A stretch of DNA of 64,000 nucleotides from Patescibacteria group bacterium. Its GTDB lineage: Bacteria; Patescibacteriota; Minisyncoccia; Phycocordibacterales; CSBR16-119. The position numbers were made by a program, and so were the translations under genes. The stretch lies in assembly GCA_030917865.1 (NCBI GenBank), contig JAUPTX010000002.1, positions 40 to 64,039 on the forward strand, in the 5' to 3' direction. Below are positions 4,762 through 10,711 of the stretch, one piece after another (position 1 is the stretch's first letter; each line of letters opens with the position of its first letter). A model generated the notes under the pieces. It had not been told where the DNA came from and did not search any database. It saw nothing but the letters and a program-made list of their open reading frames with translations.

Positions 4762-4983
4762 ATGAAAGACCAAAAGGTTCACAACAAAGAAAAGCTTAAG
4801 GCTTTCGACCAGCAAGATTGGATAACTGTAGCAATTCTTATTTTGGCCTTTATCTTAGTATACGTGAGCATCTCTGAAGAATACGAACAAGAAGAACCAA
4901 AACAAGAGATGAAAAGCGAATGGAGATCGCCCACACAAGAAGATACAGTGTATTATGAGATCGCACCATCGCCCCCGCTCTAA
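4762..4983 (+). CDS. hypothetical small membrane protein (73 aa, one predicted TM helix)
   Basis: ORF with hydrophobic core ITVAILILAFILVYVSI, followed by a GC hairpin plus T-run. Slightly GC-richer than its neighbours. Confidence 0.35.
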   Translation: MKDQKVHNKEKLKAFDQQDWITVAILILAFILVYVSISEEYEQEEPKQEMKSEWRSPTQEDTVYYEIAPSPPL

Positions 4984-5006
4984 TAAGAGTCGGGGGTTTA
5001 TTTTTT
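4972..5006 (+). terminator. intrinsic terminator (hairpin CCCCCGCTC..GAGTCGGGGG + TTTATTTTTT)
   Basis: Seen directly; overlaps the 3' end of uvrA on the opposite strand. Confidence 0.5.
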
Positions 5007-7646
5007 AATCTTCTTCATTGCTCTCTTTGTCTTTAGTAAGGTTTTTCGAAGATACTGACCTGTAAACGACTTTTCATTATCGGCAACTTCTTCTGGAGTC
5101 CCCTTTGCAATAACCCTACCTCCATTTTGCCCTCCCTCTGGACCCAAGTCTACGATATAATCAACCACTTTTATAAGGTCCAAGTTGTGTTCGATAACCA
5201 CAACAGTATTTCCCTTCTGAACCAATTTATCTAAAACAGAAATCAAATTCGCCACATCATCGTAGTGAAGTCCAACCGTTGGCTCATCAAGTAAATATAT
5301 TGTTCGCTCTGTCATAGGTCTATAAAGCTCTGAAGAAATTTTTACACGTTGAGCCTCCCCACCAGATAGAGTTGTTGCGGGCTGGCCAATTTCCAAATAA
5401 CCAAGACCAACATCAGAAAGAGTTTTTAGTCTGTCATAAATAGCTGGAATATCTCCAAAAAATTCTATTCCTTCTTCCACCGTCATACGCAAAACCTCGT
5501 AAACGTTTTTGCCTTTGTATTTTACTTTTAGAGTCTCTTTATCAAATCTTTTTCCATCACAAACATCACAAGTCACATACACGGTCGGCAAAAAGTGCAT
5601 CTCTACAGCCTGTAGACCTTTTCCTTCACAGGCCTCACATCGTCCACCTTTTACGTTAAAAGAAAATCTATTTGCTTTCCACCCCCGAAAACGCGCTTCG
5701 TCTGTAGCCGCAAACATATCTCGAATATGACCCCATGCGCCGGTATAAGTCGCCAAGTTTGAACGTGGTGTTCGACCGATCGGAGACTGATCTATCAAGA
5801 TCGCACGTGACAAATTTTCTGTGCCGGAAAATTCAGCACAGTTAAAAGTTTTTGCGCTTCTGTATTTTCTTTCAAATCTTGCTTGTAAATTTTTATGCAA
5901 AACTTCGTAAAGGAAAGAAGATTTTCCAGAACCAGAAACTCCAGTAATAGCAGTCATACGACCCAAAGGTATTTCTGCGTTTATATTTTTTATATTGAAT
6001 ACTTTTGCACCTTTTATTTTTATCCAACCCTTGTTCGTATCGCGTCTTTTTTCCGGCAAAGGAATAACTTCTTCTTCTCTTAAATATGAAATTGTTCGAG
6101 AACCGCTTTTATCTTCTTTTCCTGACAAAAGTTTATCAAGATAATCAGCAACAACAATCTGACCGCCATGAACTCCGGCCTTTGGACCAATATCTACAAT
6201 ATAATCAGACGCATAAATAGTATCTTCATCGTGCTCAACCACAATTATAGTGTTTCCAAGGTCTCGTAAATCCTCTAAAGTTTTGATCAGCCTATCGTTA
6301 TCTCTTTGATGAAGTCCGATTGTCGGTTCGTCGAGCACATATAGTGCGCCCACAAGCCTGGACCCTAGCTGCGAAGCAAGTCTGATACGCTGCGATTCAC
6401 CACCAGAAAGCGTGCTTGCTTTTCGATCAAGAGTTAAATAATCTAGTCCAACATTTAACATGAACTTTAGCCTATCTTCTATTTCTTTTATAACAGAAAC
6501 AGAAATCTCGGTTTCTTTTTTAGAAAGTTTTAAACTTGTTATAAAATCATATGCATCTTTTATAGACTGATCTGTAAATTTCACAATATTCATTCCTTTT
6601 GATCTGTCGCCCAAAAACACATTTAAAGCCTCTTCACGAAGTCTGGCCCCACCACAAGTATCACAAATCTCATCCCCAAAGAAATTTTTAGTACCAAGCC
6701 CGTTACAATCAGGACACGCACCATATGGAGAGTTAAAAGAAAAAAGTCTTGGCTCTATTTCAGGAAAAGTATATCCGTCATCTGGACAAATAAGTTTAGC
6801 GGAAAGTAAAATATTTTCTAGATCTTCACCCTTATTATGAAAATCAGAAACAACGATTCTAATAAATCCGTCAGATTCGTTTATGGCTCGCTCTATTGCT
6901 TCTGACAAACGCATATCAAAATCCTCGCTAGAATTTATTGCCTCACTAAAAGAAAAAGAATCGATTAGTAAATCTATCTCATGTTTTTTTGTTTTTGAAA
7001 GAGTTATAGAGTCACGTAAATTTTTAACAGCGCCATCAACACGCACTTTCGAATACCCCTTTCCTAAAAAGTCGTAAAGCATCTGATAGTATTCCCCCTT
7101 TCTTCCGCGAACAACAGGTGAATAAATATGCACAGAATCTTCTGTGTACTCTACACCCATCACTTCTTTTTTATTTGGAGAATTTTTCAAACCTCTGATT
7201 TTATTTTTTACAAATTCAGAAATTTCTTGATTTGAAAGTTTCTTAATTTCTTTTCCAGAAATAGGACTGTAAGGCCTGCCAATACGCGCATAAAGAACAC
7301 GCAGATAGTCGTAAATTTCTGTTATTGTGGCAACGGTAGAACGAGGGTTATTTGACCTTGATTTTTGATCAATAGAGATTGCTGGTGAAAGACCGGTGAT
7401 TTCATCGACGTCAGGCTTTGGCATTTGAGAAAGAAATTGACGCGCATAAGAAGAAAGCGACTCTACGTAACGACGTTGACCTTCTGCGAAAATTGTATCA
7501 AAAGCAAGCGAAGACTTTCCAGAACCAGAAAGACCAGTAAAAACCACCATTTTATTTCTTGGCATTTCAACACTTATATTTTTAAGATTATGAGTTTTTG
7601 CCCCACGAACCACTATTTTCCCCGCCTCAAATTCTTGTTTTTTCAT
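4998..7646 (-). CDS. uvrA: excinuclease ABC subunit A
   Basis: Two ABC ATPase modules with Walker A motifs GLSGSGKSS and [12 protein letters not shown] signatures LSGGESQR and LSGGEAQR, and zinc-finger cysteine clusters ([16 protein letters not shown]). Confidence 0.95.
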
Positions 7647-7752
7647 AAATATTTATAAATACGCTAAATCCCCCTCCGGATGACCTTTGGGGTTTACAGG
7701 AAGACTATACCACACTTTATAAAGATAATTAATAGGCAATATTTTTCCACAT

Positions 7753-7781
7753 TTGACAATATCACAGCTTCAGGCTATGAT
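7753..7781 (+). promoter_or_regulatory. near-consensus sigma70-type promoter (-35 TTGACA, 17-nt spacer, -10 TATGAT) driving the small GC-rich ORF pair
   Basis: TTGACA at 7753-7758 and TATGAT at 7776-7781. Shares the context tTTGACAAt with four other cassette promoters in this window. Confidence 0.5.
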
Positions 7782-7847
7782 ACCAATCCGCCACAAACGG
7801 CAAGTTCTTTCAATAGACCGATCACAAACAAAAACCTTAAACACTGA

Positions 7848-8024
7848 ATGCACCTAACATTGGACTTCTTGAACGGATCACTTGGCTTACTAGCAATAGT
7901 GGCTGTGATCCTAGCGATGTGGGCAATCACACCTAGCGACAAAAAGCGAAGTGCGCGGATTGCCGAATTCAAACGAGTAGCACTCAGGGCACGAATTGGT
8001 TTCTACAACATCATTTCACGATGA
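7848..8024 (+). CDS. hypothetical small membrane peptide (58 aa); not in the supplied ORF track (under 60 aa)
   Basis: Manual translation gives MHLTLDFLNGSLGLLAIVAVILAMWAITPSDKKRSARIAEFKRVALRARIGFYNIISR*. One hydrophobic helix. Lies in a visibly GC-rich patch. The stop codon overlaps the next start (ATGA). Confidence 0.35.
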   Translation: MHLTLDFLNGSLGLLAIVAVILAMWAITPSDKKRSARIAEFKRVALRARIGFYNIISR

Positions 8025-8170
8025 AAGCAGAGCTGATTCTAACCATAGTACTACTCGTAGTCGGAACCATTGCATGCTTGGCATACAAGTATACCTTGTG
8101 CAACCCGATGAAGTGGAGGAGGAAGGTTGTTCACTGGAACAACAAACTCTTCAAGGAAAAGGCTGCGTAA
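8021..8170 (+). CDS. hypothetical small membrane peptide (49 aa), translationally coupled to the upstream ORF
   Basis: Manual translation gives MKAELILTIVLLVVGTIACLAYKYTLCNPMKWRRKVVHWNNKLFKEKAA*. A hydrophobic helix followed by a basic tail. A 4-nt ATGA overlap couples it to the previous ORF. Confidence 0.35.
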   Translation: MKAELILTIVLLVVGTIACLAYKYTLCNPMKWRRKVVHWNNKLFKEKAA

Positions 8171-8249
8171 CCAATCGACGCAGTGGAAAAGTTTGTGTGA
8201 TCCTCACTGGAGGAAGCACGAGTCTTACACCAAAGTGCAAGATCGCGAA

Positions 8250-8283
8250 GGCCGTCACGGGAGTGACGGCCTTCATTATTTTT
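8250..8283 (+). terminator. intrinsic terminator (GGCCGTCAC-GGGA-GTGACGGCC + TTCATTATTTTT)
   Basis: Perfect 9-bp GC-rich stem followed by a T-rich tract, closing the small-ORF cassette. The tail overlaps the uvrB stop on the other strand. Confidence 0.7.
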
Positions 8284-10306
8284 ATTCTTCTTTTATTCCC
8301 TCAAATTTCTCCCGTAAAACTTTTATTTCATCTCGAAGTATTGCTGCAGTTTCAAAATCTAATTCTTTCACCGCTTCATTCATTTGTTTTTCTTTTAACT
8401 TAATCAACTTTTTAGGATTTTCTGCAAAAAGTTTTTCATCTATCTCAAGTTCTTTTTTCACCGCTTTTTTATGCTGTGAATCCATCGCCTCTGTAATATC
8501 TTTTATTTTTTTGATAATAGTTTTTGGAGTTATTTTATGCTTTTTATTATACGCTTCTTGAACAGACCTTCTTCTGTTTGTCTCGTCTATAGCCTTTTTC
8601 ATGGAATTCGTCACAGAGTCAGCATATAAAATAACGCGACCGTTTACATTTCTAGCTGCACGTCCGATTGTTTGTATTAAAGAAGTTTCAGATCGCAAAA
8701 AACCTTCTTTATCGGCGTCGAGTATACCAATCAAAGAAACTTCTGGTAAATCTAATCCCTCGCGAAGCAAGTTCACTCCAACCAAAATATCAAAATCACC
8801 TTTTCTAAACTCTGTTAAGATTTTTATTCTATCGATAGTCTTAACATCTGAGTGAACATACTCGGCTTTTATTCCTTCATTTTTTAAATATTCAGACAAA
8901 TCTTCTGCCATTTTTTTAGTTAAAGTCGTCGCGATAACTCGTCCGCCTTTTTTAATCTCAGCCTTTGCTTCGCTAATAAAATCTTGGACTTGTCCCTTAT
9001 ACTTTTTACCTTCTATAACTGGGCGGATTTCAAGCGCCGGGTCGATAAGCCCAGTTGGACGCACAATCTGCTCGACTATTTGCTGGCTATTTTCTTTTTC
9101 TTGGTCCGACGGCGTCGCGGAAACATATATCATCTGACCGACACGCTGATTAAACTCTTCATATCGAAGAGGTCTGTTATCTTTTGCAGAAGGTAAACGA
9201 AAACCGAAATCAACCAAGTTTTGTTTTCGAGAAGCGTCACCTCCATACATCGCCGAAAGTTGCGGCAAAGTCACATGCGACTCGTCTATAACAGTTAAAA
9301 ATTCTGGATTGCCATCTTTGTCGTGTGGGAAATATGAGATAAGCGTATCAGGCGCTTCACCAGGAGATTTACCCGAAAGATGTCTTGAATAGTTTTCAAT
9401 ACCAGAACAATATCCAACCTCTTTTATAAGAGCCAGGTCATATTTTGTTCTTCTTTTTAATCTTTCAGCTTCTAGAATTTTTCCTTCTTTTTCTAAAACC
9501 CTAAGTCGGTCTTTTAATTCTGCTTCGATAGACCTTATTGCATTTTCTTTTTTCTCGTCATTTGTTAAAAAGTGTTTTGCTGGGAATATAAAAATATTTT
9601 CTGGTCTGCCTGTAATTTTCGAAGAAACAGGATCGATCTCAATAATCTCAGAAATCTTGTCTCCGTTAAAATTTATCCGGTACATATAGTTTTCTGAAAT
9701 CGGCATGACCTCTACCATGGATCCAATAGCGCGAAACTGTCCTGAATTTAAGTCAGCATTTGTTCGGTCGTAGTGGATAGAGATTAGCCGACGCATGAGT
9801 TCGTTGCGCCCAATTTCTGAACCAACAGAAAGCATCAAATTATTTTGCCTGTATTCTTCTGGACTTCCTAAACCATAAATACAAGAAACCGATGCGACTA
9901 TTATCACATCGTCACGCGTCAAAAGCGACTGTGTTGAAGCATGTCGGAGTCTGTCTATCTCTTCATTTATCTGCGCATCTTTTTCTATATATGTATCGCT
10001 CGCCGCCATGTATGCTTCTGGCTGATAGTAGTCGTAGTAAGAAACGAAATAATGCACAGCGTTTTCTGGGAAAAATTCTTTAAACTCGCTGGCAAGTTGC
10101 GCAGCAAGAGTTTTGTTATGAGCTATAACAAGAGTTGGCTTTTGCACCTTTTCGATAACATTCGCAACAGTAAAAGTTTTTCCAGAACCAGTCACACCTA
10201 ATAAGGTCTGCTTTCGCATACCTTTTTTAAGACCATCCACTAACTTTTTAATAGCTTCTGGCTGATCTCCGGCTGGTTTGTATTCAGACTTAAGTTTGAA
10301 TTTCAT
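8282..10306 (-). CDS. uvrB: excinuclease ABC subunit B
   Basis: N-terminal KPAGDQPEAI...GVTGSGKTFT, helicase motifs, and a C-terminal UVR domain (ETAAILRDEIKVLRE). Confidence 0.95.
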   Translation of the reverse strand: MKFKLKSEYKPAGDQPEAIKKLVDGLKKGMRKQTLLGVTGSGKTFTVANVIEKVQKPTLVIAHNKTLAAQLASEFKEFFPENAVHYFVSYYDYYQPEAYMAASDTYIEKDAQINEEIDRLRHASTQSLLTRDDVIIVASVSCIYGLGSPEEYRQNNLMLSVGSEIGRNELMRRLISIHYDRTNADLNSGQFRAIGSMVEVMPISENYMYRINFNGDKISEIIEIDPVSSKITGRPENIFIFPAKHFLTNDEKKENAIRSIEAELKDRLRVLEKEGKILEAERLKRRTKYDLALIKEVGYCSGIENYSRHLSGKSPGEAPDTLISYFPHDKDGNPEFLTVIDESHVTLPQLSAMYGGDASRKQNLVDFGFRLPSAKDNRPLRYEEFNQRVGQMIYVSATPSDQEKENSQQIVEQIVRPTGLIDPALEIRPVIEGKKYKGQVQDFISEAKAEIKKGGRVIATTLTKKMAEDLSEYLKNEGIKAEYVHSDVKTIDRIKILTEFRKGDFDILVGVNLLREGLDLPEVSLIGILDADKEGFLRSETSLIQTIGRAARNVNGRVILYADSVTNSMKKAIDETNRRRSVQEAYNKKHKITPKTIIKKIKDITEAMDSQHKKAVKKELEIDEKLFAENPKKLIKLKEKQMNEAVKELDFETAAILRDEIKVLREKFEGIKEE

Positions 10307-10334
10307 GTTCGGATTATAACCTTAATTTAAAAAC

Positions 10335-10380: not shown

Positions 10381-10614
10381 ATGGCACAAGAAAAGAAGGA
10401 GCCCACAATGCTCGAAAAGTGTGGAATACTTTTCATTGCCTATAGTGTTGGCGAAAATCTGCCAACACCTAGGACGCTCAACAAGATCATCGGCGAGCTC
10501 GAAGCGGTGAGCGGTCTCACATCAGAAGAGATCCGACAGGTTTATCGCTACGTACAAGAAGAGGCATTCAAGATGTATCTTCCCAAAGAACGTAGAGGTG
10601 TCGGATTCAAGTAA
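10381..10614 (+). CDS. hypothetical small protein (77 aa), GC-rich cassette
   Basis: Complete ORF (MAQEKKEPTMLEKCGILFIAYSVGENLPTPRTLNKIIGELEAV...) bracketed by the promoter above and a GC-hairpin terminator. No family recognised. Confidence 0.4.
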   Translation: MAQEKKEPTMLEKCGILFIAYSVGENLPTPRTLNKIIGELEAVSGLTSEEIRQVYRYVQEEAFKMYLPKERRGVGFK

Positions 10615-10637: not shown

Positions 10638-10668
10638 AGAGCCCCGCATCGCAGGGCTCTCTTTTTTA
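10638..10668 (+). terminator. intrinsic terminator (AGAGCCC-CGCATCGCA-GGGCTCT + CTTTTTTAC)
   Basis: Seen directly. Confidence 0.6.
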
Positions 10669-10711
10669 CAAATACATCTCTTTTACTTTCTCTTCGAGTT
10701 TTTACCCTGAT

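Follow-up and report, generated by a model that had tools for sequence, protein, structure and literature searches.

What does the 635-bp spacer between uvrB and uvrA encode in a member of the Patescibacteria, and is it a gene at all? We address this question in a stretch of 64,000 nucleotides (nt), hereafter the window, from contig JAUPTX010000002.1 of the Patescibacteria assembly GCA_030917865.1. An initial annotation had placed in this spacer two overlapping small open reading frames (ORFs), ORF1 and ORF2, each of which would encode a membrane peptide with a single helix. The two-ORF cassette lies on the plus strand and is antisense to the flanking uvr genes. The best reading of the pair is a previously undescribed, lineage-specific family of small bacterial membrane proteins. 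We consider it fairly probable that the cassette is a genuine, vertically inherited two-gene operon for very small membrane proteins in one Patescibacteria lineage, with peptides that may form a membrane complex. Its less ordinary traits are the strictly syntenic antisense position in the uvrB-uvrA junction and a covarying 3' domain of four hairpins that outlasts the peptides.

Two conserved frames for small membrane peptides

Relatives were reached via homologues of UvrB (98% to 76% identity) and the contigs that carry them, and one metagenome locus was reached via an ORF1 profile. The best UvrB relatives of the window are Patescibacteria genomes (candidate phyla radiation (CPR), Parcubacteria-type). 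A further 11 distinct genomes carry the unit, in each case within the uvrB-uvrA spacer and on the strand opposite to the uvr genes. The outcome that would have refuted the initial annotation, a lack of conservation of either reading frame in related genomes, did not occur. ORF1 has homologues of 52-80 amino acids (aa) in 10 genomes, which form a single family by BLASTP and by hidden Markov models and share the motif (L/M)W(A/V)I(T/S)xS(D/S)K(K/R)..ARI. Type A homologues of ORF2 (49-101 aa) occur in eight genomes with the motif YK....NPxK(W/F)xRx(V/I)V..N.K(L/F).

The manner in which these frames diverge argues that they code for protein. Peptide identity is 25-47% where UvrB identity is 84-92%, and blastn gives no alignment of the ORF DNA beyond the closest relative (L082). 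In distant pairs, the proportions of nonsynonymous (pN) and synonymous (pS) differences are 0.38-0.55 and 0.7-0.9, respectively. Between the window and L082, the closest pair, the ratio of nonsynonymous to synonymous divergence (omega) is 0.46 for ORF1 and 0.21 for ORF2, compared to 0.036 for uvrB and 0.011 for uvrA. Of the 34 substitutions in the mini-ORFs of this pair, 18 fall at third codon positions, and the single indel in ORF1 comprises 3 nt and is in-frame. No other frame or strand is conserved over the full length. Since both frames persist as protein sequences in DNA that has itself diverged, we judge the ORFs to be real genes. On this comparative evidence, both are protein-coding genes under purifying, if relaxed, selection, and their peptides evolve about 10 times faster than UvrA. 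As a side observation, the synonymous divergence (dS) of the mini-ORFs between the window and L082 is 0.22-0.26, about half that of uvrA and uvrB (0.46), which may reflect either RNA-level constraint on the coding region or small numbers.

Each peptide of the window has one hydrophobic stretch, with Kyte-Doolittle means over 19 residues of 2.26 (ORF1) and 2.51 (ORF2), and a C-terminal tail that is rich in K, R, W, and Y and carries a net charge of +7. In the homologues of all genomes, the N-terminus is short and either acidic or neutral, a single hydrophobic helix follows, and the net charge of the tail is +3 to +12. Given this charge distribution and the positive-inside rule, an N-out/C-in orientation is expected for both peptides. 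AlphaFold2 predictions from single sequences place helices at residues 2-27 and 31-57 of ORF1, separated by a break at 28-30 (mean predicted local distance difference test score, pLDDT, 80), and at residues 3-27 and 29-48 of ORF2, with a break at N28/P29 (mean pLDDT 82). These predicted breaks coincide with the conserved motifs T28-P29-S30 in ORF1 and N28-P29 in ORF2. The original description of each product as one hydrophobic helix plus a basic tail is therefore upheld by hydropathy, charge, and structure prediction. The two ORFs were also considered as paralogues, which was rejected as their similarity is not significant.

The start of ORF2 shares the letters ATGA with the stop of ORF1. Among the 11 two-ORF cassettes, the stop and start overlap in 10, by the 4 nt of ATGA in eight and by 10-11 nt in two, and are separated by a 7-nt gap in the remaining one. 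We infer translational coupling because this overlap is conserved, and the cassette in this respect shows the conserved stop/start overlap or abutment of a translationally coupled bicistronic operon. An inverted repeat brackets the ORF1/ORF2 junction in the window. A structure sequestering the ORF2 start was rejected, since the inverted-repeat feature is not consistent across genomes.

Outside the immediate relatives, the peptides are nearly invisible to database searches. A word-indexed protein search returned no match for ORF1 and only ORF2 itself for ORF2. An exhaustive HMMER search of 1.84 billion representatives added only the ORF2 of L085 (51 aa) and two spurious repeat proteins, and neither profile found a homologue in the 2.9 million viral contigs of IMG/VR. 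No consistent family match was obtained for either peptide in Pfam, NCBIfam, PHROG, or PADLOC; isolated weak profile matches are driven by the transmembrane (TM) helix and do not recur among homologues, the best being PycTM (E = 0.0035, one sequence). Profile searches likewise gave no match to Hok, Fst, Ldr, TisB, or other toxin families. Literature searches returned no description of the pair; the papers retrieved deal in general terms with small proteins, type I toxins, and SOS peptides. The assumption that the unit would be unannotated holds for ORF1 of the window genome, which is in no protein collection, but not for ORF2, which is annotated as "hypothetical protein" in the JGI record. Both ORFs are gene-called in just one of the 11 two-ORF genomes (L085).

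The consensus promoter, the two frames with their ATGA overlap, and the perfect GGGA-loop terminator with its T-run that the initial annotation had described are all found in the window (Table 1). Because the promoter position, frames, overlap, and terminator recur in 11 otherwise unalignable genomes, we regard these features as beyond chance.

Table 1. Coordinates of the cassette and its flanking elements in the window.
Feature	Position	Strand	Description
uvrA	4998-7646	-	882-aa UvrA
uvrA promoter, -10 box (extended)	7704-7712	-	TGGTATAGT; conserved in relatives
Promoter, sigma-70-type	7753-7781	+	TTGACA-17-TATGAT; 11/12 consensus positions matched
5' leader	7788-7847	+	A/C-rich, without Shine-Dalgarno motif, largely unpaired (predicted)
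GTTCTTT box in leader	7804-7810	+	about 15-25 nt past the inferred transcription start
ORF1	7848-8024	+	58 aa; short acidic N-terminus, TM helix, hinge W-A-I-T-P-S-D-K-K, basic helical tail
ORF2	8021-8170	+	49 aa, different frame from ORF1; TM helix, hinge Y-K...N-P-x-K-W-x-R-x-V-V-x-W-N-x-K-L, tail
HP0	8162-8184	+	contains last ORF2 codons and stop codon
HP1	8193-8221	+	bipartite stem, inner CCUC/GAGG helix, ACUG/AUUG loop
HP2	8222-8243	+	loop mostly CAAG
Intrinsic terminator	8247-8283	+	perfect 12-bp stem with GGGA loop (8247-8274), T-run (8275-8283)
uvrB	8282-10306	-	674-aa UvrB

An RNA framework with exchangeable peptide cargo

The position of the cassette promoter is constant in all relatives, 41-67 nt upstream of the ORF1 ATG, where a -35 box of the form TTGACA, TTGCCA, TTGTCA, or TTGACT is followed by 17 nt and TAnnnT. 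Transcription in the window would start at about position 7788. The promoters of the cassette and of uvrA stand back-to-back with their -35 boxes about 20 bp apart, and the stretch 7647-7787 diverges by 5.7% from L082, compared to 25% for the cassette leader. In the folding predictions, bases near the ORF1 start have an unpaired probability of 0.67-0.68, compared to a mean of 0.39-0.40 over the transcript, and in nine of 10 genomes the start region exceeds this mean. Because a Shine-Dalgarno (SD)-like motif occurs in only two of the 33 long ORFs of the window, we take initiation without SD to be normal in this genome. Several long ORFs of the window have a -10 box a few bases from their ATG. 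The uvrB gene has TTATAAT upstream of its ATG (10306-10330, minus strand), and its mRNA is apparently leaderless since the box is only 6 nt from the ATG. The genome seems to depend on initiation that is leaderless or independent of SD.

The most constant part of the leader is the GTTCTTT box. All 12 cassette genomes, L002 and L095 among them, share an unchanged GTTCTT core, and the seventh base is T everywhere but in L090 (GTTCTTC), whereas the leader around it diverges by 25% even from the closest relative. The box is not palindromic, occurs in the window at chance frequency (28 observed against 26 expected), and was not found at the uvrA or uvrB promoters. In the 64,000 nt covered, a palindromic or LexA-like box was not found either, nor was an operator common to the cassette and the repair genes. 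Candidate roles of the GTTCTTT box are an operator, an RNA motif, or a signal of the initial transcribed region. On the uvrA side, we observed a strongly conserved element, CCCCCTCCGGAnnnCCTTTGGGG, in the 5' leader of uvrA (7670-7692, minus strand). On the uvrA strand it is able to form a hairpin of the order CCCC, AAA, GG, 4-nt loop, CC, GGA, GGGG, of which the stems are kept and the loop varies in L082, L085, L086, L087, L090, and L094. This element may be a regulatory structure or a protein-binding site.

Beginning at the ORF2 stop codon and up to the T-run, the transcript is predicted to fold into a domain of about 120 nt with four hairpins, the last of which is the terminator (Table 1). 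The terminator hairpin is followed by ATTATTTTT, and the T-run abuts the uvrB stop codon. Independent minimum free energy (MFE) folds recover the four-hairpin layout in 10 of 10 genomes with z-scores of -5 to -8, and, for HP1 and the terminator, RNAalifold reports compensatory changes at 11 of the 20 pairs. For HP0 and HP2 an arm-swap statistic was used, as the MAFFT rows are out of register for pair counting. The arms in this statistic come from each sequence's own MFE fold, so that pairing within a genome is partly built in and the between-genome drop and the shuffle z-scores are what informs on covariation: HP0 pairs 6.0 of 6 positions within and 2.7 of 6 between genomes (six distinct stem sequences), HP2 5.6 of 6 within and 3.2 of 6 between (ten distinct stem sequences), and the terminator 9.0 of 9 within and 6.3 of 9 between (eight distinct versions).

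The G-U pairs of these stems would be C-A mismatches on the other strand, and the 3' structure thus belongs to the plus-strand mRNA. The ORF2 stop codon is situated inside, before, or after HP0, depending on the genome; since it drifts in and out of the hairpin, HP0 is considered an RNA-level element. On the minus strand of the window, no T-run follows the terminator hairpin, while some relatives have 5-6 T on the opposite strand and a plausibly bidirectional terminator. The sole match in Rfam 15 is below threshold and relates the terminator hairpin to ctRNA_pGA1 (19.8 bits against a gathering threshold of 45, E = 0.38).

This framework persists where the peptides have changed. In L088 and L094, the same ATGA overlap leads into a different ORF2 (type B), which is conserved between those two genomes and shows no significant relatedness to type A. 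L095/L096, a relative with 76% UvrB identity, keep the promoter, the GTTCTTT box, the ATGA overlap, and the GGGA-loop terminator, and combine an ORF1 of 32 aa that retains VWAIGTGG with an ORF2 of 45 aa that matches none of the profiles. L002, the closest species-level genome (UvrB 76%), has a single 150-aa ORF with three helices in the same antisense orientation within a long spacer. Its promoter, box, leader, and a similar terminator are present, and aaacgggctcacaaa is common to L002 and L095; blastn, tblastx, BLASTP, and hhalign detect no similarity between the interior of the L002 cassette and that of the window. Because type B ORF2, L095/L096, and L002 keep the framework with changed peptides, the RNA framework is older and more stable than its peptide cargo.

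Genomic surroundings

The neighbouring genes of the cassette are uvrA, uvrB, uvrC, tgt, mreB, and mreC, and uvrC is located farther downstream on the same strand as uvrA and uvrB. No phage gene, including endolysin, was found among the neighbours, and a check for mobile-element boundaries found no repeats flanking the unit. Nucleotide profiles of the 3' domain and of the promoter plus leader match once per locus, and no further copies of either are found elsewhere in the window, which makes the cassette single-copy.

Other spacers of the region hold small genes of their own. The uvrA-uvrC spacer contains a second antisense small membrane gene (4762-4983, plus strand) for a 73-aa product whose single TM helix lies between a basic N-terminus and an acidic C-terminus. 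This gene is fast-evolving; it is kept in L082 (74% aa identity) and L085 (47%), and several relatives have a gene call at the matching position. A third small ORF (10381-10614, plus strand, 77 aa) lies in a GC-rich patch (about 47%) of the uvrB-tgt spacer. It is not hydrophobic, has a hairpin and T-run nearby (10640-10670, approximately), and lacks a homologue in any fetched locus; the uvrB-tgt spacer of relatives holds other genes, e.g., DUF1653 and antisense ORFs of 95-128 aa. The uvrB-flanking spacers have the appearance of hotspots of small accessory genes.

The junction between uvrB and the cassette is likewise variable. In some relatives, the uvrB stop is separated from the cassette terminator by a stand-alone GIY-YIG ORF of 88-101 aa (L085 6022-6288; L088 6007-6291; L094 6007-6291; L089 4453-4758), which is degraded in L090 and not found in the window. 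It looks like a mobile, homing-endonuclease-like insertion. In L082, a hairpin element of about 70 nt (gaaaatgatgctgtttgag...cgagttcatgattttc) together with AT-rich DNA is inserted between the cassette terminator and uvrB (about 6100-6330 in locus coordinates), and similar inserts are found in L088, L090, and L094. The contigs L083 and L084 end within the corresponding stretch, which suggests a repeated sequence resembling a miniature inverted-repeat transposable element. Furthermore, a protein of 230 aa with a TIR_2 domain is inserted between tgt and uvrB in L094 (2601-3293). This points to the uvrB flanks as a variable region able to hold defence-type genes.

Possible roles of the peptide pair

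We propose that a single mRNA of about 490 nt would be made from the near-consensus promoter back-to-back with that of uvrA. Ribosomes would load without SD on the open, A/C-rich leader and translate ORF1, terminate at the overlapping UGA/AUG (AUGA), and restart on ORF2, and the conserved overlap suggests that the two peptides are made jointly in this way. The 3' domain would halt transcription before a head-on run into uvrB; its covarying structure would probably also stabilise the mRNA. Both peptides are predicted to insert N-out/C-in, each with a TM helix, a hinge (TPS in ORF1, NP in ORF2), and a basic helical tail. By analogy with known small proteins, they may form a non-lethal hetero-oligomer that tunes or anchors a larger membrane protein, an assignment that we make tentatively and to which we give somewhat less than an even chance. 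AcrZ, KdpF, CydX, and MgtS are non-toxic and bind a larger membrane protein; they resemble the cassette peptides in size, in their single TM helix, and in their weakly constrained sequence. Such accessory proteins are usually encoded in or beside the operon of their partner, or are stress-regulated. The cassette, in contrast, has no adjacent partner gene, and its two peptides are co-translated. If the role is accessory, the location beside uvrA would reflect shared promoter architecture and not a part in excision repair.

Several observations weigh against a coupled pair of accessory peptides in a membrane complex. The basic tails are not significantly amphipathic, no better than shuffles. The ORF2 start has a mean unpaired probability of 0.45 compared to a coding mean of 0.38 and is not consistently buried; since this start is not consistently structured, the case for coupling is drawn solely from the geometry of the overlap. 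The turnover to type B ORF2 and to the 150-aa ORF of L002 argues against a tight, specific heterodimer. Moreover, the shape of the peptides also fits type I toxins. An accessory or regulatory pair is nonetheless ranked first, because of the near-consensus promoter, the open start, the lack of a dedicated antisense RNA, and strict vertical inheritance, followed by a type-I-toxin-like function and, in third place, a DNA-damage checkpoint.

In a type-I-toxin-like system, which we consider a rather unlikely second choice, one or both peptides would damage or depolarise the membrane and be restrained by an antisense small RNA (sRNA) or by uvrB read-through complementary to the cassette mRNA. The resemblance proposed at the outset stands with respect to protein shape. 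Fozo et al. (2010; PMC2887945) characterise type I toxins as hydrophobic proteins of <60-70 aa that have a TM region and end in a polar, charged, or aromatic C-terminus, and both peptides, like all of their homologues, show this TM-plus-tail shape at 58 and 49 aa. The cassette further shares with Hok/Mok-Sok, TisB-IstR1, DinQ-AgrB, Fst, and TxpA-RatA a free-standing intergenic unit with its own promoter and terminator, a long structured mRNA, and a narrow, lineage-restricted, fast-evolving family, and the absence of a T-run on the uvrB strand after the hairpin in the window makes read-through antisense plausible. Single-TM toxins linked to SOS exist as well, e.g., DinQ, which is connected to DNA damage (PMC3567139). 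The regulation does not follow the type I pattern, however. An antisense sRNA promoter on the minus strand, as the initial annotation would suggest, was not found: a scan of both strands in 10 genomes gave no positionally conserved antisense promoter, only sporadic matches (9/12) in unrelated sequence, and no Rfam antitoxin RNA. The primary transcripts of hok, aapA1, and dinQ are translationally inert and show a sequestered start and 5'-3' fold-back. The ORF1 start, by contrast, is accessible under a near-consensus sense promoter, and a Hok-like 5'-3' fold-back was rejected because the predicted long-range pairs are inconsistent between genomes. The dependence of Hok translation on the overlapping upstream ORF mok is a further point of resemblance, but the cassette has two co-conserved peptides that overlap end-to-start and not one nested leader ORF; two such peptides are also unusual in that type I toxins normally comprise one ORF. 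Read-through is not a conserved feature given the plausibly bidirectional terminator of some relatives, and the cassette is single-copy, strictly syntenic, and vertically inherited. As the features of an RNA antitoxin are lacking and no toxin family is matched, we do not file the cassette as a type I toxin.

A checkpoint function, in which the peptides would be co-induced with uvrA and delay division or growth like SidA, DidA, YneA, and SosA, appears less likely still. All of these are small proteins that cross the membrane once and have a genetic link to the DNA-damage response. The gene for YneA is divergent from that of a repair regulator, and the cassette resembles this arrangement in being divergent from uvrA. 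Many bacteria use a small membrane-bound inhibitor of this kind (PMC6051672, PMC4211646, PMC6851548). The uvrB-uvrA position is kept in 12 of 12 genomes, the promoter shares its well-conserved stretch with that of uvrA, and the invariant GTTCTTT box just downstream of the start could be an operator. Of the stress link suggested by the flanking repair genes, the shared promoter region stands, but the link is one of position, with no damage-responsive or shared operator detected and the box at chance frequency and absent from the uvrA and uvrB promoters. Position itself is weak evidence, as small plus-strand genes of unrelated kinds also occupy the uvrA-uvrC and tgt-uvrB spacers. Each known inhibitor is encoded by one gene and not by a coupled pair, none has sequence similarity to the cassette peptides, and YneA and SosA have extracellular domains, which the cassette peptides lack, their tails being predicted to be cytoplasmic. 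A related idea is that a two-peptide toxin-like or checkpoint effector sits on an antisense RNA scaffold (promoter, GTTCTTT box, 3' domain, and terminator) and is set by its own promoter against convergent uvrB read-through; we regard this as a long shot.

The conservation of the RNA raises the question of whether the peptides are secondary altogether, with the transcript acting in antisense as an excludon-like insulator or regulator at the uvrB-uvrA junction, or giving rise to an sRNA from its 3' part. In favour of this view, the RNA framework reaches relatives with 76% UvrB identity and is better conserved than the peptides, the cargo turns over (type B ORF2, the 32-aa ORF1 of L095, the 150-aa ORF of L002), and the dS of the ORFs is below that of uvrA and uvrB. 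Long overlapping antisense transcripts that regulate divergent genes are documented in the Listeria excludons (PMC3377988). The cassette resembles these as an antisense unit, here between co-directional genes, whose RNA would be complementary to any read-through. It differs in that it ends at a strong terminator before uvrB, overlaps no neighbouring coding sequence, and encodes selected peptides; purifying selection on both frames, the hinge motifs, and in-frame indels indicate that these are no by-product. Together with the separate conserved promoter of uvrA and the lack of an Rfam family match, this leaves the view quite improbable. The idea that the GC-rich patch is a non-coding RNA gene, or that its ORFs arose by chance, can be regarded as effectively refuted. 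The patch is real, with a G+C content of 46.6% in the unit 7788-8283 compared to 36.6% in the whole window, as first noted; GC-rich islands in AT-rich genomes are often structured RNA genes, and the 3' part is a structured RNA. Yet both frames are conserved as protein across DNA that no longer aligns, and the patch has no tRNA or tmRNA by ARAGORN and no Rfam match; a hidden structured RNA gene (tmRNA, RNase P, 6S) was rejected for this lack of matches. Equally disfavoured is the early suggestion of holin-like peptides, or a prophage remnant. Two-component holins such as XhlA/XhlB of PBSX are adjacent small membrane proteins with charged C-termini on one transcript, as in the cassette, and there is one weak PHROG holin match for type B ORF2 (E = 0.21). 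The PHROG matches are weak and inconsistent, however, and a lysis cassette, phage genes, viral homologues, and flanking repeats are all lacking at a locus with strict chromosomal synteny.

Position, promoter, overlap, and 3' domain are kept across genomes that differ in up to one quarter of their UvrB residues. Because this architecture is kept while the peptides change about 10 times faster than UvrA, selection clearly acts on the locus of about 500 bp, which matches no curated family library (Pfam, NCBIfam, PHROGs, PADLOC, Rfam). Annotation systematically overlooks small membrane proteins, and nowhere more so than in uncultivated Patescibacteria with their very small genomes, which are regarded as streamlined. 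If the function is an ordinary accessory role, the wider significance would be modest; a toxin or checkpoint role, if true, would raise it, and the finding is otherwise not very surprising. Were the scaffold with an effector to hold, membrane physiology or growth would be coupled inversely to the expression of excision-repair genes, and the cassette would be a two-peptide, antitoxin-less variant of SOS-linked type I toxins whose scaffold tolerates rapid replacement of its cargo, in a phylum for which we know of no SOS-linked type I toxin system. With two peptides, one mRNA, and clear motifs, the cassette offers a compact test case for SD-less initiation and termination-reinitiation in CPR bacteria, and it allows asking whether repair-gene neighbourhoods in these bacteria carry membrane-acting effectors.

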